Virus record (IMG/VR): IMGVR_UViG_2703718822_000010
DNA from: a virus
Lineage: Duplodnaviria > Heunggongvirae > Uroviricota > Caudoviricetes
Length of the DNA stretch: 64,000 nt
Reading direction: 5' to 3' (one strand)
The notes beneath the pieces are model-generated. The model was given only the letters and a program-made list of their open reading frames with translations. It had not been told where the DNA came from and did not search any database. Position numbers and translations under genes: made by a program. Below are positions 3,174 to 11,769 of the stretch, piece by piece; position 1 is the stretch's first letter, and every line of letters starts with the position of its first letter.

Positions 3174-4106
3174 ATGACTGATATTAACGATGTAATCAAG
3201 ACCATTGATGAACTTATTGATGGCGGCGTACTGACGCAGTATGCCATCGCCAGAGAGGCGGGAATTTCCGACGGCACATTATCGGCTTTCCGTAAGGGAA
3301 AATATAAAGGCGATAACGCTGCTGTGGCTGCTTCCCTGCGTTCCTGGTATGAGAACTGGAATAAACAAAGCGCACTGCCGGAACCGCCGCAGTTTGTGGA
3401 AACGCAGACAGTCCAGGAGCTGCGCGCACTGTTTCAGGCGGTTCGTCTGATGGGCTGTATTAACGTTATTGTGGGCGTACCGGGTGTGGGTAAAACGGCC
3501 ACTGCCCGTAATTACTGCCAGGAGCAACCAAACACCTGGATGATCACCCTGTCACCCGCGCACTCCAGCGTCACGGAGTGTCTGCTGGAGCTGGCCGATG
3601 CGCTGGGGATTGATTACACCCGCGCGAACAAAGGGGCATTATCCCGCGCCATCCGCCGTCGCCTGATGGGAACGCGTGGACTGGTGATTGTGGATGAGGC
3701 GGATCATCTTGGTATTGACGGTCTGGAGCAACTCCGGGCAATTCAGGACGCCACGGGGATCGGGATGGTGCTTATTGGTAACCCGCGCGGATTGTTTAAA
3801 GGTGGACGCCGCGCCTTTGATGATTTATCGCGCCTGTTCAGCCGTCTTGCCCGTACAAAACAACTTCGCAAGGCCAAAAAGGCGGATGTGCTGGCCATTG
3901 CCAGGGCATGGGGTATCAGTGGTGAGGCCGAGCTGGCCGTCATGCAGGCTATCGCTGAAAAGCCGGGAGCGTTACGCGTTCTGACACATACGCTTAACCA
4001 GGCGTGGCTCACCGCCAGCGGTGAAGGTGCGGCGCTGACAGAAAAACATATTAATGCGGCCTTTAAAGAGGTTTATACCAACCCTGAATTACTCTCACAG
4101 GTGTGA
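3174..4106 (+). CDS. MuB-like transposition ATPase
   Basis: 310 aa with Walker A GVPGVGKT; follows the transposase as in Mu. Confidence 0.8.
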   Translation: MTDINDVIKTIDELIDGGVLTQYAIAREAGISDGTLSAFRKGKYKGDNAAVAASLRSWYENWNKQSALPEPPQFVETQTVQELRALFQAVRLMGCINVIVGVPGVGKTATARNYCQEQPNTWMITLSPAHSSVTECLLELADALGIDYTRANKGALSRAIRRRLMGTRGLVIVDEADHLGIDGLEQLRAIQDATGIGMVLIGNPRGLFKGGRRAFDDLSRLFSRLARTKQLRKAKKADVLAIARAWGISGEAELAVMQAIAEKPGALRVLTHTLNQAWLTASGEGAALTEKHINAAFKEVYTNPELLSQV

Positions 4107-4330
4107 TTATGGCGGTATTTTATATTCCTGATATTTACGGACGCTTTTACCTGGTTAATTTCGATAACGTGAAGGTGATTTCACTGGCCGAAAATAAAGA
4201 ATGTGGCGATTTACTTTTTGAATTTAATGACCGCACACGAATGGTGATATCTGCCGGACTTGATCGCGAAGGTGCGACAGAAGTTTACAGCGGAATATGC
4301 CGTTCTGTTGGTGCGAAACAAGTCAGCTAA
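4103..4330 (+). CDS. Small early protein (Mu kil position)
   Basis: 75-aa ORF with start overlapping the MuB-like stop; function unknown. Confidence 0.4.
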   Translation: MIMAVFYIPDIYGRFYLVNFDNVKVISLAENKECGDLLFEFNDRTRMVISAGLDREGATEVYSGICRSVGAKQVS

Positions 4331-4342
4331 ATGAGGTGTTAT

Positions 4343-4597
4343 ATGAATATGCAATCCTGCGGTAACAAAATGAATTTATTCGACTCCCTGAACAGCGCGC
4401 GCCGTCTGACCGAACTTGCCGGTGCGGTACTGGAACGCAGTAAGCGCTACCCACAACGTTTTGCACTGAAAACCACGCCGCCGGTAGGCAACGTGCAGGG
4501 AACCGGTGAAATTGAAATCACCATACAGACCAACGGCCTGCGCCGCCGTGTGAAGGCCACCCGCATCAGCGGCTGCACGGTTTACTGGGAGGTGTGA
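4343..4597 (+). CDS. Hypothetical early protein
   Basis: ORF 4331..4597; internal ATG at 4343 has a GAGGTG Shine-Dalgarno upstream. Confidence 0.4.
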   Translation: MNMQSCGNKMNLFDSLNSARRLTELAGAVLERSKRYPQRFALKTTPPVGNVQGTGEIEITIQTNGLRRRVKATRISGCTVYWEV

Positions 4598-4598
4598 G

Positions 4599-4880
4599 GT
4601 GAAAAAAAATCTCATTGCATGGGCGTGGTCGAGTGGTCTTATTGAGTTTGGTTACGTCCTGCCGGAAGGTGCATTGCCGATAGTTGCCGGAAAGCCTGCC
4701 ACGGTACGGCATGTGATTGAGGTTATGGCGCGTCATGGACGTGATGAACAGGAGCAGTTACTGGTTCCGGGGATACCGGAAGCGGTGACGGAGGAAGAAG
4801 CCTTTAATGCCATGATTCGGTTCTGCCGTGAGGTCAGACGCCGGGTCAGTTATCCAAACAGAACGAGGACCAGAGGATGA
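4599..4880 (+). CDS. Hypothetical early protein
   Basis: 93-aa ORF tightly packed in the co-directional early operon. Confidence 0.4.
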   Translation: MKKNLIAWAWSSGLIEFGYVLPEGALPIVAGKPATVRHVIEVMARHGRDEQEQLLVPGIPEAVTEEEAFNAMIRFCREVRRRVSYPNRTRTRG

Positions 4881-5149
4881 GTAAAGTCGTACGCATTATT
4901 TTCGAATACAAGGAGCACGTTATCCATAAAAACGCTGATGGAACAGTGCGCATGGGGGTAAGTCTGGACATACGTTCAACCGGGATAAAGCAGAAAGGTG
5001 ATGGACCCGCCATGATTTTTGGAGTGGTTATGCTCGCGGAAAGCAGAGACTTTGCTGAACTTGTGGCAATGAAAGCCAGAGCGCTCATGAAAGATATGAA
5101 CATGAGTTCCGGGGTTATTAAAGGTAATGAATTTAATCAGCAGGGGTAA
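4877..5149 (+). CDS. Hypothetical early protein (paralogue of the next ORF)
   Basis: 90 aa; N-terminus MSKVVRIIFEYKEH matches the next ORF's MSKVRVIFEFEH. Confidence 0.45.
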   Translation: MSKVVRIIFEYKEHVIHKNADGTVRMGVSLDIRSTGIKQKGDGPAMIFGVVMLAESRDFAELVAMKARALMKDMNMSSGVIKGNEFNQQG

Positions 5150-5153
5150 TTCC

Positions 5154-5447
5154 ATGAGCAAAGTACGCGTTATTTTTGAATTTGAGCATGTTTCGCATGA
5201 CGAAAAACCGGCAGGCAATGACAGTGTTGAAGTGCATGAAAAGATTGGAGTGGATGTGAAAACAGAACGTGATACGGATAACAGGCCGACGTCACTCTGT
5301 GACGTTTATGCAAGCATTCTCCAGTATCACAGTCCTGTAATTATTCAGTTTCTCTCAGCGGAATTTCAGGCATCTGTACAGGCTTTTGGGGCGGATGCCA
5401 TCATTAAACGCCACCGCGTGCATAAAGCATCAGGCACACTGCAATAA
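5154..5447 (+). CDS. Hypothetical early protein (paralogue of the previous ORF)
   Basis: Internal start of track ORF 5127..5447; tandem paralogue. Confidence 0.45.
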   Translation: MSKVRVIFEFEHVSHDEKPAGNDSVEVHEKIGVDVKTERDTDNRPTSLCDVYASILQYHSPVIIQFLSAEFQASVQAFGADAIIKRHRVHKASGTLQ

Positions 5448-5458
5448 GGAAAAACAAA

Positions 5459-5989
5459 ATGGCTAAACGTGTTACAAAATTAAAGGCCGCAGCCGAGGCT
5501 GCACCGCAGACCCGCGAAGAAGTCAGCCGCGATATCCGCACCCTGGGCGATATTCAGCGAGAGGCGCTGCGGCTGGAAACGGCGATGAATGATGAAGTGG
5601 CAGAAATCACCGCCCGTTATACGCCGCAAATTGAAAACCTTAAAAAAGAAATCAAAGTGCTTTTTAAGGGGATTCAGGACTGGTGCAAAACCAACCGCGA
5701 TGAGCTGACGAACGGCGGCAAAACCAAAACAGCCAATCTGACCACCGGAACGGTGTCATGGCGACTGGGGAATCCATCATGCAGCGTCAGTCGTGATGTG
5801 GAAGGTGTGATTGAAATGCTGCGCCGTATGGGCCTTGAGCGTTTTATCCGCACGAAAGAGGAAGTGAACAAGGAAGCGGTCCTGGCGGAGCCGGATGCGG
5901 TGAAAGGGATTGCCGGTATTAAGGTGAATAAAGGCGCTGAAAGTTTTTATGTCGAGCCTTTTGAACAGGACGCCGGACTGAATAAATAA
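5459..5989 (+). CDS. gam: Gam host-nuclease inhibitor (Ku-like DNA-end binding)
   Basis: 176 aa; LGDIQREALRLETAMNDEVAEIT, CKTNRDELTNGGKTKTANL and LERFIRTKEEVNKEAVL match Mu Gam as recalled. Confidence 0.85.
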   Translation: MAKRVTKLKAAAEAAPQTREEVSRDIRTLGDIQREALRLETAMNDEVAEITARYTPQIENLKKEIKVLFKGIQDWCKTNRDELTNGGKTKTANLTTGTVSWRLGNPSCSVSRDVEGVIEMLRRMGLERFIRTKEEVNKEAVLAEPDAVKGIAGIKVNKGAESFYVEPFEQDAGLNK

Positions 5990-6086
5990 CACCGCATTAA
6001 TCAATTAAATATCACTTCGTTTTAATTATGGCGCTCGCGTCAGGGGACTGCCTGCGCCTGTAAACTGAAAATAAGGAACAGGATAT

Positions 6087-6629
6087 ATGGCATATTTTTA
6101 TTTCAAATTAGACCGTGTGCAGACAAATAAATATTTCACCAAATATCAACAGACTGTTTTACCGCTACGCAACAGTATTCTTCGGGCATTACTGAAAAAT
6201 ACAGGCGCTGCCGGATTGCGCTTAAAGCCGTTTGCCATGGACGTAATCAGTGAGTTTTATTTTTCTGGTGCTCTGCCTGCGGGCTGGCGTAAGCGCGATG
6301 ATGTGGCTTTTATCGGGGACGGACCGTGCTTTATTGCCAGACCTGATGAGTCATGCCCTGAAGGTCCGGCGATTGCCGCAATGATTGAAACCGCTGAACG
6401 TGAGTTAAGAAAGCGTCCTGATTTCCTTGTCTGGCTCTGTGAAAAGCTGGGGGTAATGAGAATCCCCTCCATGTTTAACACGGACTCCTGGTGGACCCCG
6501 TCGCTCTCCCGTGATGCCCTGTGCGTGGTGTTTAAAGTAGGCGCTTATGGCAGGGAAATAAAAGGGTGTATTCCTGAAGAATGCCAGGAAATTAAACATT
6601 CTGAATATGTGGCGCTGACGGAGGAATAA
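6087..6629 (+). CDS. Hypothetical early protein
   Basis: 180-aa ORF in the early operon. Confidence 0.4.
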   Translation: MAYFYFKLDRVQTNKYFTKYQQTVLPLRNSILRALLKNTGAAGLRLKPFAMDVISEFYFSGALPAGWRKRDDVAFIGDGPCFIARPDESCPEGPAIAAMIETAERELRKRPDFLVWLCEKLGVMRIPSMFNTDSWWTPSLSRDALCVVFKVGAYGREIKGCIPEECQEIKHSEYVALTEE

Positions 6630-6632
6630 TTC

Positions 6633-7166
6633 ATGATTGATGCAAAAGTGCTTGAAGGGGTTAAAAACTGGCTGAGTATTTACGGGCGTCTGACCTGCGG
6701 CATTCTGGCTGAAAAAATGAATATGCCGCCATCCTCGATGGTTTATTTTCTGCGTGATGCGGTCGATGCCGGGGTGCTGACGGAATGTAACGGTTTTTAT
6801 GATATTCCGCGTCCCCGCCCGGTGCAGCCGGTTCGTCGCAAATGCAGCCAGGAAGGTGCGGCTGATGATGTTCAGTGGTGCAGCTTCAGAAAATCCCTGC
6901 CGTGGATTGAGGGGCATGATATTCCGTCGATGGCGTGGGAATTTGCTCAGGGCGTACTGACCTGCGAAACCGTTTATGTGGTGGCTGAAGTTGATGAGCA
7001 GGCCATGAAAGAAGGCGTGCCCCAGTTTGTGATGGCGTATATCGACATTCGCCTGGGTGTCATTATCTGCGGTTTAAGCGGCTGGAATATCACCGAACAT
7101 GTTCTGCGTTACCTGATTGTTGACCGGACGGCTGCGCCTGCCGGGATATCTGCGGAGGTGGCGTAA
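6633..7166 (+). CDS. Hypothetical early protein
   Basis: 177-aa ORF in the early operon. Confidence 0.4.
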   Translation: MIDAKVLEGVKNWLSIYGRLTCGILAEKMNMPPSSMVYFLRDAVDAGVLTECNGFYDIPRPRPVQPVRRKCSQEGAADDVQWCSFRKSLPWIEGHDIPSMAWEFAQGVLTCETVYVVAEVDEQAMKEGVPQFVMAYIDIRLGVIICGLSGWNITEHVLRYLIVDRTAAPAGISAEVA

Positions 7167-7681
7167 TGTTCTTTAAAACATCAAACCCTTCCGCGCTGGC
7201 TGCGTGGCAAAAATACCAGCAGGACTACAAGAAAGTTAAGGATGAGGCAAAACGTCTTGAGGCCGTGCTGAATGTTGATTGTCGGTCGGTATTTGTATCC
7301 GGTATCAATGGTTTTTATTTTAAAGGACTGCGTTTTACGGATAACAAATATCCTTTTCATCGCGACTTATGGCGAAAACCGACTGCGTCGAATGGCTGGA
7401 GCTGCACGCCGCGCACATCGTGTATTCCCAAAGCCCTGTGCGCTGCCTCTGACGAACTTAACAGTCTGTGGCGTGAATATTCGCCCGTCACGTATGCCAG
7501 AACCGATGCCCTGTTGTTCTGGCTGGGTATTGATTTCTCGGCAATCCTGTTTGGCCCTGTGGAGTGGTTCTGCGTTGACGATGTGATTTACCTTCAGTGC
7601 GGCGTAAAACCCGCAAAACAGAAAATGACCGAAATTCTGTCTGATGAGTTTTATGCTGCTGAAAAGCGAGTCAGGGGGTGA
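7166..7681 (+). CDS. Hypothetical early protein
   Basis: 171-aa ORF; start overlaps the upstream stop. Confidence 0.4.
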   Translation: MFFKTSNPSALAAWQKYQQDYKKVKDEAKRLEAVLNVDCRSVFVSGINGFYFKGLRFTDNKYPFHRDLWRKPTASNGWSCTPRTSCIPKALCAASDELNSLWREYSPVTYARTDALLFWLGIDFSAILFGPVEWFCVDDVIYLQCGVKPAKQKMTEILSDEFYAAEKRVRG

Positions 7682-7684
7682 TGT

Positions 7685-8236
7685 ATGATGATTTTACAAC
7701 CCATGGGGCGAAAAGGCCGTGCACCCGCTCATGTCCGTGCGTGGACACCTGAAGAAGATGCACTGCTGATTGCGCTTTATCCATCCACCCCGGTTAAGGA
7801 TATTGCTGTCAGGGTAAAAAGAAGTTTCTGGGGTGTACATAACCGGATTGTTTTATTACGCGGTACTTACCCGGAGTTGCTCAAATGCAAACGTCCAAGA
7901 TTTAAACATGATGAAGATAAATTTATCCGAAAAAATGCCAGAACGATGACCGGTAAGCAAATAGGAGAATATCTGGGGCGAGACCGGGATTCTGTCCACA
8001 AACGGGCGCGATATATTGGCGTAAGCATGAAAAAATACGGAGAGTTGCTGCCCTTCACCCGTATACCTGATGATGATGTTCATCTTATTCGTGAATTACG
8101 GGATGCTGAATCACCACGACGTCTTACCTTCCGGGAAATAGGCGAGAAATTTGAATTATCCGAGAGTACGGTGAATTTTATTTATCACCATCGCCGGACT
8201 GCCGAAGATGTTGTATTACGGGAGTTAATGCCATGA
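7685..8236 (+). CDS. Hypothetical early protein, possible DNA-binding
   Basis: 183-aa basic protein with two internally repeated HTH-like segments. Confidence 0.35.
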   Translation: MMILQPMGRKGRAPAHVRAWTPEEDALLIALYPSTPVKDIAVRVKRSFWGVHNRIVLLRGTYPELLKCKRPRFKHDEDKFIRKNARTMTGKQIGEYLGRDRDSVHKRARYIGVSMKKYGELLPFTRIPDDDVHLIRELRDAESPRRLTFREIGEKFELSESTVNFIYHHRRTAEDVVLRELMP

Positions 8237-8544
8237 TAACGACATTATTTGTTGAATCAGACGAGCCTCTGGTATGTGTCGCCGGAATGTCGGTTTGTGG
8301 CGGAACGCTGACCGGTGTTTATTTCGGGGATTTGCGCGGTTATCCCTGGCATTCACTGGATGACGCATTTCCGCCTGATATGGAGGCTGTCGTGCTGATT
8401 GTTCAGTATGGTGACCAACAGGAACTGCGCATCGGCCATATGGGGTATGAAGGCTTTTTTATTGATGAAGAAACCGGAGCCTGCCTTGAAGATGAGGACG
8501 GACAGGTGACGCACTGGTGCCATATTTCAGCTTTACCGGAATGA
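8233..8544 (+). CDS. Hypothetical early protein
   Basis: 103-aa ORF overlapping the upstream stop. Confidence 0.4.
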   Translation: MITTLFVESDEPLVCVAGMSVCGGTLTGVYFGDLRGYPWHSLDDAFPPDMEAVVLIVQYGDQQELRIGHMGYEGFFIDEETGACLEDEDGQVTHWCHISALPE

Positions 8545-8909
8545 CGGGAGGTGAATGCGTGAGAAGTTATATTGATAATGAAAAACTGAAGACAATCAGC
8601 GACTGTCTTAGCTTGCTGGCAAAAATAAAAGAAACCATTGAAGAGATTAAATTTCAGCTTGAATACGAACCCTGTGGCGATGATACATGGCGTAACTCTG
8701 CCAGAAAAGCACTAGCTGTCTTTCAGAAACAACGCCGGACTGTTGAATACCGCCTTGCTGTATTGCGCCAGGAGGAAAAGGAAAGAAATATAAGACGTCA
8801 TGAACTCGTTAATGATTTTCTTGTTCGTGAATTAAAGGAGCGTGTGCCGGAGTCGGTATTTTTTGAGTGTGAGGCTGTTGCCCGTAGCAAAGCACTGGAA
8901 ACTGATTAA
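8541..8909 (+). CDS. Hypothetical early protein
   Basis: ATGA start/stop overlap with the upstream gene; coiled-coil-like. Confidence 0.4.
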   Translation: MTGGECVRSYIDNEKLKTISDCLSLLAKIKETIEEIKFQLEYEPCGDDTWRNSARKALAVFQKQRRTVEYRLAVLRQEEKERNIRRHELVNDFLVRELKERVPESVFFECEAVARSKALETD

Positions 8910-8921
8910 ACAGGCAGGTGA

Positions 8922-9257
8922 ATGATGAGTATTGAATTAAGATCGTCTTATGAATATCGTAAAATTCTCATCGCCGGAGGCATGAAACCGGAAGATGCAG
9001 AAAAAATCGTTTCTTTTATGGATAAAGAATGTGACAAACGGGATATGCCAGAAATTATTATGGATGACATGATTCTGCATTCAGCCGTAGCGTTAAGCCC
9101 GTTATGGATTGTGCATTCTCTTGCTGAAATTGCCAAAGGCACCGATAAACAGGCAGCTGTTGCTGCCCTTCAGACGCTTAATGAAATGCGTATATCTCCA
9201 CGCCCGACATTAATACATATGATTCTGTCCAGCATGGAGGATAAAGCAAATGAATAG
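8922..9257 (+). CDS. Hypothetical early protein
   Basis: 111-aa ORF. Confidence 0.4.
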   Translation: MMSIELRSSYEYRKILIAGGMKPEDAEKIVSFMDKECDKRDMPEIIMDDMILHSAVALSPLWIVHSLAEIAKGTDKQAAVAALQTLNEMRISPRPTLIHMILSSMEDKANE

Positions 9258-9447
9258 TCTACCCGCTGGATGGGCGCGGCCACTAATGGCCAGGAAGCAT
9301 CATTTTTTTAAAACAGGCGAAAATATCAGTATATGTGGACGGTGGTTATATCTGGCTCATAATCGCGAGCCGGATACATTTGAAAGCCCTGATGACTGTG
9401 CCGAATGCCGCAGAAGAGTGAATAAGGAGAAAGATAATGGACAATAG
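9250..9447 (+). CDS. Hypothetical small protein
   Basis: 65 aa with a CxxC pair near the C-terminus. Confidence 0.3.
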   Translation: MNSLPAGWARPLMARKHHFFKTGENISICGRWLYLAHNREPDTFESPDDCAECRRRVNKEKDNGQ

Positions 9448-9733
9448 TTCTCTGTTGTTCTGGTGCTTATATATCACATCCTTTTTCGGCGCATTTGTTA
9501 TTACCCGGTGGTTATGTCGAAAAATCATCTGCTTTTTTGATAAAAGACATCCGGTTGAACGGGCGGCTGATGCGCTCATTCAGCAGGCCATTGTGTTATA
9601 TAGCGGTGAATTTTTCTGCCGGATAACAACCAGAGATGGCTGGCACATAATGATTATTCCACCAACACACCATGCCCGGTGGGATGAGGCAGAAAAGGCT
9701 TTCCATGTCCGTAAAAAGGTAAATACGGTATGA
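9437..9733 (+). CDS. Hypothetical small membrane protein
   Basis: 98 aa with a hydrophobic N-terminal segment. Confidence 0.35.
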   Translation: MDNSSLLFWCLYITSFFGAFVITRWLCRKIICFFDKRHPVERAADALIQQAIVLYSGEFFCRITTRDGWHIMIIPPTHHARWDEAEKAFHVRKKVNTV

Positions 9734-10239
9734 GAGGAAAACTGATATCCGCCATTCATGTGGCAAAGCGCGAGCTTGCCCTGGATGATGAGACTTATAC
9801 ATCCGCGCTGCTGGCAGCCACCGGCAAAACCAGCTGCCGGGATATGTCACCGGATGAGTTATCCCGCGTGCTGGATGTTTTCAAAAAACGCGGTTTTAAA
9901 GTGCGTCAGAACCCGGTTAACCGGGCCTTAAAACCGGGTACGGTGACCGCCAAAATTCGCGCCATCTGGAAGGTGATGCTCCGGCAGGGCTTTATCACCG
10001 ATGGTGCGGAAACCGCCCTTAACCGCTGGGTGAAATCGCAGACGGCCGCGCAGAACGGCGGCGAAGGTGTGGCAAACTGGCAGTGGCTGGAGCAACACCC
10101 CGCCCTGGCCTCAGATGTGCTGGAGCGTCTCAAGCGATGGCACCGCCGCAAAATGCTGGCCGCGATGGGAATGCCCGAACGCACGCTGATGGGGTATGAC
10201 GCCGTTTGCAGGCAGTATGAAAAATCACTTCCCCGTTAA
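9730..10239 (+). CDS. GemA-like (Mu gp16) regulatory protein
   Basis: 169 aa; position just before the Mor/C-family activator; N-terminus typical of Mu GemA. Confidence 0.7.
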   Translation: MRGKLISAIHVAKRELALDDETYTSALLAATGKTSCRDMSPDELSRVLDVFKKRGFKVRQNPVNRALKPGTVTAKIRAIWKVMLRQGFITDGAETALNRWVKSQTAAQNGGEGVANWQWLEQHPALASDVLERLKRWHRRKMLAAMGMPERTLMGYDAVCRQYEKSLPR

Positions 10240-10308
10240 CCCCAAATCCCGCCACAACGCGGGATTTTTATTTTAAACTTACCGGGAACGTGAGAACCGG
10301 AGGCTGAT

Positions 10309-10734
10309 ATGGCAGAAACTCAGATGAGCATGTTTGGTGGTGACAGTGAGCAACTGCACGCCCTTATCGACCGCCTTGATGACATCCCTGATGATGTTCT
10401 CAAAAAGAACTGGCCGCGGACCCTGTCAGAACTGGTTGAAGTCACCGGCGCAGAACTTCAGCGTCAGGGGATTGAGCCGGTACTGGCCGGTAAACTGGCA
10501 CGCAAGGTGGCTGCGGCTCAGGCAGCCTATATGGGCGGACGGGGTTATTACCTGCCGGTCGGGGAATCTCTCTTTGCCGAGCTGCGAAACAATGAGATAT
10601 TTTCGCGCTGGGACCGGGGCGAGAAAATTGAATCCCTTCGCCGCCATTACCGGATGTCAGAAACCCAGATTTATACCGTCATACGTGAACAGCGCCGTCT
10701 GCATCTGGCAAGAACGCAACCGCCACTTTTCTGA
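10309..10734 (+). CDS. Mor/C-family transcription activator
   Basis: 141 aa immediately upstream of the endolysin; only one Mor/C-family member is present. Confidence 0.7.
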   Translation: MAETQMSMFGGDSEQLHALIDRLDDIPDDVLKKNWPRTLSELVEVTGAELQRQGIEPVLAGKLARKVAAAQAAYMGGRGYYLPVGESLFAELRNNEIFSRWDRGEKIESLRRHYRMSETQIYTVIREQRRLHLARTQPPLF

Positions 10735-10805
10735 TATTCCGCAAAGCCTGCCGCCTTTCCTTCACCGTTACGCTGACTCAGAGAACATCATGAGACAGCG
10801 TAACA

Positions 10806-11306
10806 ATGCCAAAACTCCCCGCACCACTGCGTAAAAAGCTGATTGCCCTTGTTCTGGCCGGTGCCGGGACGTTCACGATTGCCACGCATTACACCGGTTA
10901 CTGGGAAGGGAAAGAAAACTCCACGTATATCGATCCCACCGGTACACCCACCATCTGTTACGGCCATACCGGCCCGGATGTGAAACCGGGTATGACCCTG
11001 ACGGATGAAGAATGCCTGGAACTACTGGAAAAGGACATGAAATGGGCCTTTGCGGCCATTGATCGGCGTGTTCAGGTGCCGCTTACCCGTGGTCAGACTG
11101 TGGCGCTGGCTTCGTGGATCTTCTGGGCCGGTGAAACGAACTTCCGCAACTCCACGCTTCTGCGCCTGATCAATGCCGGGCAGATGCCCGCGTCCTGTAA
11201 GCAGTATATCCGCTGGATTTATTCAAAGGGGGTGAAACTCCCCGGCCTTGAGGCCCGCCGTTCGGCGGATGAATGGTTATGTCGCTACGACTTGCCGAAA
11301 GTCTGA
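10806..11306 (+). CDS. lys: SAR endolysin (T4-lysozyme family)
   Basis: N-terminal signal-anchor segment LIALVLAGAGTFTIA followed by the E-x8-D-x5-T catalytic triad in EGKENSTYIDPTGTPT. Confidence 0.85.
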   Translation: MPKLPAPLRKKLIALVLAGAGTFTIATHYTGYWEGKENSTYIDPTGTPTICYGHTGPDVKPGMTLTDEECLELLEKDMKWAFAAIDRRVQVPLTRGQTVALASWIFWAGETNFRNSTLLRLINAGQMPASCKQYIRWIYSKGVKLPGLEARRSADEWLCRYDLPKV

Positions 11307-11379
11307 ACCGCTTCTGGCGACCGCTCATGATAGCGCTGCTGTGTGCGGTACTGCTGTTACGGGGTGTCCTGTGGCTGCG

Positions 11380-11769
11380 GTGAATAATGCCTTACCGGCC
11401 CTGATTGCCGGGGCGTGCATGGCGGCGCTGGGGATTATCGCTGTACTGGTTGCCGCGATATGGGGAATGCACCAGAAGACGCAGCGCCTTGAAGACAATA
11501 ATCAGGTGCTTGTGCGTGAGCGGGATGAGGCGCGTCAGGTGCTGGCAAATCAGCAGCACACCCTGCAACTCATTTCACAAATCAGTGAGGCGGCCACGAA
11601 TGAAAAACAACAGAACATTCAGCACAGCGAGGGACAGCAGAGCGTTGTCCGCCGGTCGCTGGCAGCGGTGCCTGCGGCCTCTGCCCCTGTTCCTGATGAT
11701 GTGGCTGATCGGGTGCGCCGGGCCGTCTGTGAAATACGTGCCTGTGAAGCCGGTGCCGATCCCCGCTGA
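11380..11769 (+). CDS. i-spanin (Rz-like)
   Basis: N-terminal transmembrane segment then coiled coil; start uncertain (GTG 11380 or ATG 11419). Confidence 0.6.
   Translation: MNNALPALIAGACMAALGIIAVLVAAIWGMHQKTQRLEDNNQVLVRERDEARQVLANQQHTLQLISQISEAATNEKQQNIQHSEGQQSVVRRSLAAVPAASAPVPDDVADRVRRAVCEIRACEAGADPR

Follow-up and report, generated by a model that had tools for sequence, protein, structure and literature searches.

What kind of region is formed by the run of small genes at positions 4103-9733 of the 64,000-nt virus record IMGVR_UViG_2703718822_000010, and what might these genes do? The initial annotation, made from the letters of this record alone, had described a block of fifteen small early genes, equated it with the host-takeover region of phage Mu, and noted that such blocks are where anti-defense genes tend to sit. 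The whole record is referred to here as the window, and all coordinates follow its numbering. We find that the block, a conserved backbone of genes interleaved with exchangeable cassettes, is very probably the semi-essential early (SEE) region of an E. coli prophage, Mu-like and transposable, whose insertion site is lsrC. No part of transposable phages is understood less well than their SEE regions, and one SEE gene of Mu has recently been shown to remodel the O-antigen.

The block is the early region of a Mu-like prophage

E. coli strain CFSAN027343 carries the segment 4103-9733 at 100% identity in its chromosome, as part of a Mu-like prophage whose site of insertion is lsrC, and the segment occurs at 90% identity or above in 233 of 5,426 complete E. 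coli genomes. To the left of the block lie a repressor-like gene, a Ner-like helix-turn-helix (HTH) gene, a Mu-type transposase and a MuB-like ATPase, and to the right lie GemA, Mor and the lysis genes. The immediate neighbors are:

3174-4106, + strand: MuB-like transposition ATPase (Pfam Phage-MuB_C, E 2.5e-25, and AAA_22; 48% identity to Mu B)
9730-10239, + strand: GemA (Pfam GemA, E 3.9e-29)
10309-10734, + strand: Mor, in the right flank beyond GemA

This gene order, c/ner/A/B, then the block, then gemA/mor, matches that of phage Mu, and the earlier placement of the block as the equivalent of the Mu early region is thus upheld. The block lies between B and gemA/mor on the early-operon strand, with MuB_C, GemA and Mor all on the + strand, and it holds gam (by Pfam) and kil (by PHROG) among many short ORFs that are poorly conserved, as its mosaic relatives illustrate. 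As the term 'semi-essential' implies, its genes would be expected to be dispensable for plaque formation. In the literature, SEE regions are described as consisting of small genes of poor conservation and largely unknown function (PMC8705779, PMC3820752).

Copies annotated as 'inserted Bacteriophage Mu-like phage' are found within genomes of Shiga toxin (Stx) 2c- and Stx1a-converting phages (LC727881.1, 65296-71332, and LC727895.1, 10405-15055), from which it appears that the phage is still transposing in Shiga-toxin-producing E. coli.

The fifteen open reading frames are genes in a compact layout

Fifteen open reading frames (ORFs) of 65-183 aa occupy 4103-9733, all on the + strand between the MuB-like gene and GemA as originally described, and the NCBI PGAP annotation of the identical E. 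coli chromosome calls the same 15 coding sequences, 14 of which it labels 'hypothetical'. Each of the 15 matches a PHROG family (E 1e-32 to 1e-106) and is found on at least 1,000 contigs, and most are preceded by a Shine-Dalgarno sequence. When each ORF was compared with its own most divergent gapless allele, the ratio of nonsynonymous to synonymous substitution rates (dN/dS) lay between 0.05 and 0.37. The purifying selection seen in these ratios, together with the PHROG families and the Shine-Dalgarno sequences, indicates that the 15 ORFs are real genes. Several of them are short (65-98 aa) and without a Pfam or NCBIfam match, as would be expected if some of the frames were open by chance within non-coding or regulatory sequence; set against the strength of the PHROG matches for every ORF, the dN/dS values, the ribosome-binding sites, the PGAP calls and the contig counts, this explanation has a negligible probability and is effectively refuted.

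The ORFs are tightly packed, with overlapping stop and start codons, and the sole gap longer than 15 nt is at 5990-6086. In such a layout the 15 genes would be translationally coupled and would probably share one transcript with ner-A-B, starting from the early promoter region beside the repressor gene and ending at a terminator-like hairpin after gemA:

10244-10267, + strand: intrinsic-terminator-like hairpin and T-run, immediately 3' of gemA; 9-bp stem, then TTATTTT

The hairpin consists of AAATCCCGC...GCGGGATTT followed by the T-rich run, and since it lies between gemA and mor, expression of mor may depend on read-through or on a separate promoter.

A conserved backbone is interleaved with exchangeable cassettes

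Comparison with other Mu-like phages, which the initial annotation had proposed as a check, was made on 55 related IMG/VR loci together with Mu and SfMu (locus numbers are given below where single loci must be told apart), and it revealed a conserved backbone interleaved with exchangeable cassettes. MuB, Kil, Gam, ORF8, ORF9, GemA and Mor each occur in nearly every locus. The backbone of the block would comprise Kil, Gam, the gp11-like and gp12-like genes, a three-HTH protein and ORF3, a set common to Mu or to many transposable phages, and the slots between the backbone genes appear to exchange cassettes among close relatives: ORF1, the ORF4/5 pair, the alleles of a DUF5420-type gene (ORF7) and a tail of ORF11-15. 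The cassette parts have a G+C content of 0.40-0.45, as against 0.55-0.60 for the late genes, and by inference their genes would modify the host or counter host barriers.

Gam had been considered the only recognizable gene of the block, a view that the following counterparts of Mu genes overturn (Gam itself is listed for completeness), and ORF7 may be added to them as a divergent DUF5420-type gene:

4331-4597, + strand: ORF2, Kil-like (PGAP start 4343; PHROG 2679 'Kil', E 8e-46)
5459-5989, + strand: ORF6, Gam, Ku-like DNA-end binding protein and host nuclease inhibitor (Pfam Phage_Mu_Gam, E 1.5e-41)
6633-7166, + strand: ORF8, Mu gp11 homolog (68% identity to Mu gp11; Pfam Gp11_C, E 5.7e-41)
7166-7681, + strand: ORF9, Mu gp12 homolog (54% identity to Mu gp12; phrog_2314, E 2e-83)
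7685-8236, + strand: ORF10, 183 aa, predicted three-HTH DNA-binding protein, expanded relative of Mu gp9/E8 (phrog_323 'transcriptional regulator', E 6e-58)

Gam is an anti-RecBCD protein that caps linear DNA ends, and Kil blocks host division. ORF6 matches PF07352 along its entire length (142.2 bits, cut-off 28.3, profile positions 1-149 of 149), and from its 57% identity to Mu Gam it is predicted to bind double-stranded DNA ends and to block RecBCD. The relationship of ORF2 to Mu Kil is more distant: BLASTP gives 33% identity over 39 aa, and the two proteins cross-match each other's families weakly and reciprocally (ORF2 to PHROG 2743, the family of Mu Kil, at E 1e-3; Mu Kil to PHROG 2679 at E 9e-5). 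ORF2 is therefore best described as Kil-like, a member of the Kil family by sequence, with killing of the host or a block of its septation as the predicted effect of expression.

The HTH-like repeats that had been noted in ORF10 were resolved by profile comparison into two homologous Myb/SANT-like repeats, residues 10-66 and 67-124 (hhalign 94%, E 1.3e-7), followed by a third HTH at residues 125-183, where matches to Pfam AsnC-type and sigma-70 region 4 domains fall below the gathering score (the best, HTH_AsnC, has E 9e-5 and 22.6 bits, under the cut-off of 27). Mu gp9/E8 shares 31% identity with residues 66-166 and corresponds to repeat 2 and the third HTH. The alleles of ORF10 among relatives are about 70% or about 97% identical to it.

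A DUF3164 protein (PF11363, E 6e-79) takes the place of Gam in Salmonella-type relatives and in numerous Mu-like and B3-like prophages, and a gene like ORF3 is still adjacent to it; examples are L045:4332-4970 and L047:4785-5429, and 42 of the 80 loci L061-L140 carry the DUF3164 gene. DUF3164 may stand in for Gam functionally, and no characterization of it was found in the literature searched.

ORF3 is a stand-alone form of a domain fused to Gam

4599-4880, + strand: ORF3, 93 aa, stand-alone copy of a domain fused to the Gam C-terminus in Pseudomonas Mu-like phages (similarity to D3112)

In Pseudomonas phage D3112 an ORF3-like sequence lies inside the 266-aa 'gam' gene. Residues 1-161 of the D3112 'Gam' are 54% identical to Gam of the window, and residues 176-248 are 43% identical to ORF3 (E 8e-19). 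A tblastn search found the ORF3-like sequence in 65 Pseudomonas phage records, within genes annotated as Gam or 'host nuclease inhibitor', and it is because of this fusion that ORF3 bears the PHROG label 'host nuclease inhibitor'. In the window, in Salmonella prophages and in Burkholderia phage BcepMigl, the domain stands alone.

An exhaustive profile search collected 968 representative clusters (50% identity clusters, E of 1e-3 or below), mostly of 80-120 aa, and no Pfam domain was found in the members, including longer ones with N- or C-terminal extensions. The AlphaFold2 model of ORF3, built on a 105-sequence alignment, has a mean predicted local distance difference test (pLDDT) score of 92.4 and a predicted template modeling (pTM) score of 0.81; an earlier run on a shallow 22-sequence alignment, with a pLDDT of 57.7, was discarded. 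The predicted fold is that of a small alpha/beta domain built from three strands, a helix, a short hairpin and a long helix. ORF3 thus represents a large unnamed family with a confidently predicted small fold, for which fold searches returned no significant structural neighbor.

The top matches in BFVD were baculovirus BRO-like proteins at E 0.065, which serve as a lead only. An MbtH-like fold, that of the small adaptors of nonribosomal peptide synthetase adenylation domains, was considered and set aside, as the structural superposition was not significant. The ORF3 profile also gave weak matches (E 0.05-0.3) to nucleotide-binding domain 1 of Clp/Hsp100 proteins, just before and across the Walker A loop. 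The match sets LLVPGIPEA of the profile against LIGEPGVGKTA, with the GKT motif absent, and by eye the order of secondary structure is apparently the same; the resemblance is probably due to chance.

We surveyed the surroundings of the gene in 80 loci found with a 6-sequence alignment, in Alpha-, Beta- and Gammaproteobacteria and a few other groups. A gene for Gam (11 loci) or DUF3164 (42 loci) lies on the same strand as the ORF3-like gene in 53 of the 80, within 1.5 kb in 51 and within 150 nt in 19; GemA is present in 54 of these loci and MuB in 41. Fusion in some phages and neighborhood in others suggest that ORF3 may work with the DNA-end-binding protein Gam, at DNA ends. Tentatively, ORF3, fused to Gam in Pseudomonas Casadabanvirus and encoded next to Gam or DUF3164 in most other Mu/B3-like prophages, could be a partner module dedicated to the proteins that bind DNA ends in transposable phages. 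It would then be a missing part of the protection or processing of linear ends, perhaps through contact with a nuclease or repair factor of the host, and the hairpin that follows gam or DUF3164 (described next) might belong to the same module or mark cassette insertion.

A conserved hairpin element follows gam

6016-6073, + strand: conserved intergenic element with a hairpin at 6030-6058 (outer stem 6030-6034 / 6054-6058), in the only gap of the block longer than 15 nt

The element, of about 45-58 nt, follows the pattern TTTTAATTATGGCGC..CGTCAGGGGACTGC..GCGCCTGAAA and is located just after the gam or DUF3164 gene, before the next gene, in every enterobacterial Mu-like locus examined, Mu included. 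Its positions include L001:6354-6412 in Mu, L059:5426-5484 in SfMu, L062:8205-8262 and L132:1465-1524. It is better conserved than the genes that flank it. In the alignment of the element, 94.7% of cells of the hairpin are paired, as against 32-55% when the partners are slid; the outer stem is 100% paired and one of its pairs switches from C-G to U-A. Scans against Rfam and for terminators and sigma-70 promoters gave no Rfam match, no T-run and no sigma-70 consensus. There is one copy per locus, save in L042, where two copies (4512-4568 and 5131-5187) flank an inserted 192-aa gene, an arrangement which suggests that the element is a cassette boundary.

ORF4 and ORF5 are old tandem paralogs

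4877-5149, + strand: ORF4, 90 aa, tandem paralog A (phrog_4107; dN/dS 0.31)
5154-5447, + strand: ORF5, 97 aa, tandem paralog B (phrog_2230, E 2.5e-39)

These two ORFs had been called paralogs from the outset, and the relationship is detectable at the profile level only. In BLASTP, the first 17 residues alone align (E 0.016), and the PHROGs of the two proteins differ; comparison of family profiles built from their alleles gave an hhalign probability of 95.2% (E 2.7e-8) over 72 columns at 24% identity. By these profiles ORF4 and ORF5 are old tandem paralogs. The ORF5-type gene is single-copy in Salmonella- and Citrobacter-type relatives, and its alleles among relatives of the window range from 60 to 100% identity.

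The remaining cassette genes

4103-4330, + strand: ORF1, 75 aa (PGAP start 4109, 73 aa), variable alleles (phrog_3375, E 2e-46; dN/dS 0.25)
6087-6629, + strand: ORF7, 180 aa, divergent DUF5420-type, cassette absent from Mu (40% identity to SfMu gp11, RefSeq label DUF5420)
8233-8544, + strand: ORF11, 103 aa, very acidic and strongly constrained (isoelectric point (pI) 4.1; 19 D/E vs 2 K/R)
8517-8909, + strand: ORF12, 130 aa (PGAP start 8559, 116 aa), cassette gene (phrog_6158, E 2e-57; G+C 0.42; in some relatives only)
8922-9257, + strand: ORF13, 111 aa, cassette gene (phrog_1988; G+C 0.40)
9250-9447, + strand: ORF14, 65 aa, probable zinc-binding mini-protein (invariant H18, C29, C50, C53)
9437-9733, + strand: ORF15, 98 aa, N-terminal hydrophobic, membrane-anchor-like segment (phrog_17269)

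Each of these genes varies in its own way among relatives. The alleles of ORF1 are 73-100% identical, and no homolog of it was found in Mu, in which kil comes immediately after B. Some relatives have ORF7, some lack it, and in others an allele with 24% identity takes its place; the allele at this position in L023 matches PF17457 at E 7e-14, and ORF7 itself gives no match to that family even at E 10, nor does its SfMu homolog match Pfam. The tail occurs as ORF11 alone, as ORF11-13, as ORF13-15, as all five genes, or as genes like Mu gp13/gp14. ORF13 is 34-36% identical to proteins of SfMu and Yersinia Mu-like phages, and the alleles of ORF15, whose residues 5-23 have a mean Kyte-Doolittle hydropathy of 1.82, are 100% or about 51% identical, or absent. 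To the right of the block, locus L014 has a 445-aa ORF (10056-11393) between gemA and mor that by eye looks like an insertion-sequence transposase.

ORF11 retains 80% identity in relatives with core-gene identities of only 50-65%. Its dN/dS of 0.05 was obtained at a saturated dS of about 2.2, which points to constraint and not to recent transfer. The family is limited to E. coli and Salmonella, and its 16 clusters are too narrow a set for a useful alignment. The one domain hint is a sub-threshold match to DUF551 (PF04448) over profile positions 2-61 of 68, with E 0.2 and 13 bits against a cut-off of 22, and it is no more than a lead.

The residues H18, C29, C50 and C53 of ORF14 are invariant in an alignment with homologs from lytic phages and would form a zinc site. 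ORF14 homologs are found in 325 phage records, mostly of strictly lytic Pseudomonas PB1-like phages (Pbunavirus) and some of E. coli phages, where they sit among small early genes with no function assigned (e.g. L141:1486-1689 and L142:1483-1692).

What the genes of the block may do

Several points count against parts of the picture drawn so far. Nine of the 15 ORFs have no function assigned, and we infer the single early operon, and with it early co-expression, from the layout. As for ORF3, SEE regions are compact, so some proximity to Gam is to be expected; in the window itself two genes, ORF4 and ORF5, separate ORF3 from Gam; and in some close E. coli relatives the last 22 codons (MVRLCHQVRRRVSYPNKTRTRG) are all that is left of ORF3. 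This remnant is present in L014, L023 (at about 5124-5220), L032, L033, L038, L040 and L057, and in L014 and L023, though not in L040, kil is preceded by a 139-aa gene that is Mu gp8-like. The remnant, with the gp8-like gene in some relatives, indicates recent deletion and replacement inside the block.

That such blocks harbor anti-defense genes is a reasonable prior, which the mosaic pattern and the precedents of Gam and gnarl2 favor. However, none of the 14 ORFs other than Gam matched an anti-defense or defense family in Pfam, the PHROG functional categories, PADLOC or PDB sequences, nor did ORF1-5 and ORF7-11 in an NCBIfam scan; an anti-defense function would rest on mosaicism and precedent. 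A stronger version, in which most of the function-unassigned ORFs would be dedicated anti-defense genes (anti-restriction, anti-CRISPR or similar) that inhibit host immunity early in infection, seems doubtful to us. It would account for the turnover of low-G+C cassettes among close relatives, for the company of a nuclease inhibitor (Gam) and, in Mu, of E6/gp7, which is gnarl2, and for an ORF14 common to unrelated lytic phages, and ORF11, which is strongly constrained, is as acidic (pI 4.1) as DNA-mimic inhibitors. However, acidity alone is weak evidence, there are no solved homologs, no known anti-defense family or PADLOC defense model was matched, and ORF3, ORF8, ORF9 and ORF10 are conserved backbone genes; about a third of the 14 non-Gam ORFs belong to the backbone shared with Mu and are not accessories.

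The cassette genes could instead be prophage 'morons' that act in the lysogen, through superinfection exclusion or surface remodeling; ORF4/5 would then be distantly related to Mu gp7/Gnarl2, and ORF15 would be a membrane protein. The same region of Mu encodes gnarl2 (E6/gp7, Mup07), a small accessory protein that modifies the O-antigen and whose expression shifts O-antigen banding and sensitizes wild E. coli to T5 (Silas et al., PMC12373910); none of the ORF sequences of the block was found in the supplements of that study. Mu gp7 and SfMu gp7 match PHROG 2230, the family of ORF5, near full length (positions 1-78 for Mu gp7) at E 0.009, a bridging protein from L042 matches it at E 6.5e-4, and ORF4/5 and gp7 share the slot between kil and gam, their size and an N-terminal M-[SA]-K-V motif. 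In Mu lysogens, the SE genes have been reported to be transcribed from Pe at a low level (PMC3820752), and the N-terminus of ORF15 is hydrophobic. Yet hhalign comparison of Mu gp7 with the ORF4 and ORF5 alignments was not significant, local iterative hidden Markov model (HMM) searches never recruited gp7, and neither ORF4 nor ORF5 gave a reciprocal match to PHROG 10252, the family of gp7. The link of ORF4/5 to gnarl2 is thus a weak lead, and we regard this explanation of the cassettes as unlikely.

Taken as a backbone with cassettes, the block is overall the ordinary, expected SEE region of a common Mu-like prophage. Its modestly interesting features are ORF3 as a putative partner domain of Gam/DUF3164, the constrained acidic ORF11 and the intergenic hairpin after gam. 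Sorting the genes into backbone and cassettes sets the priorities, namely ORF3 with Gam, the acidic ORF11, the ORF4/5 pair and the hairpin. The prophage is common in Shiga-toxin-producing E. coli and has copies annotated inside Stx-converting phages, so that in pathogens its early genes may have effects on the physiology of the host and on its susceptibility to phages.

Comparison with known systems

Among known systems, Gnarl2 (Mu E6/Mup07) resembles ORF4/5 in its position between kil and gam, its size (87 vs 90-97 aa) and its N-terminus, whereas homology is not established, hhalign and iterative HMM search being negative. SfMu and the Yersinia Mu-like phages (vB_YpM series) are like the window in having an ORF7-type DUF5420 gene between gam and the gp11 homolog and an ORF13-like gene, but these identities are just 34-40% and the remainder of their SEE region is Mu-like (gp6-gp9, gp13, gp14).

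The SEE region of Mu (kil to gemA, AF083977 4315-8784) occupies the same position between B and gemA on the same early-operon strand, and shares with the window the homologs of Kil, Gam, gp9/E8, gp11 and gp12 as well as the intergenic element after gam. It has 11 genes to the 15 of the window, in which ORF1, ORF3, the ORF4/5 pair, ORF7 and ORF11-15 are extra, whereas Mu gp6, gp7, gp8, gp13, gp14 and gp54 have no homolog detectable by BLASTP in the block. The HTH gene lies before gam in Mu and after the gp12 homolog in the window, where it has an additional repeat. In the 'Gam' of Pseudomonas Casadabanvirus phages (D3112, with its gam of 266 aa, DMS3 and the JBD phages), the Gam and ORF3-like modules form one polypeptide, whereas the window encodes Gam and ORF3 separately, at a distance of 579 nt that is taken up by ORF4/5.

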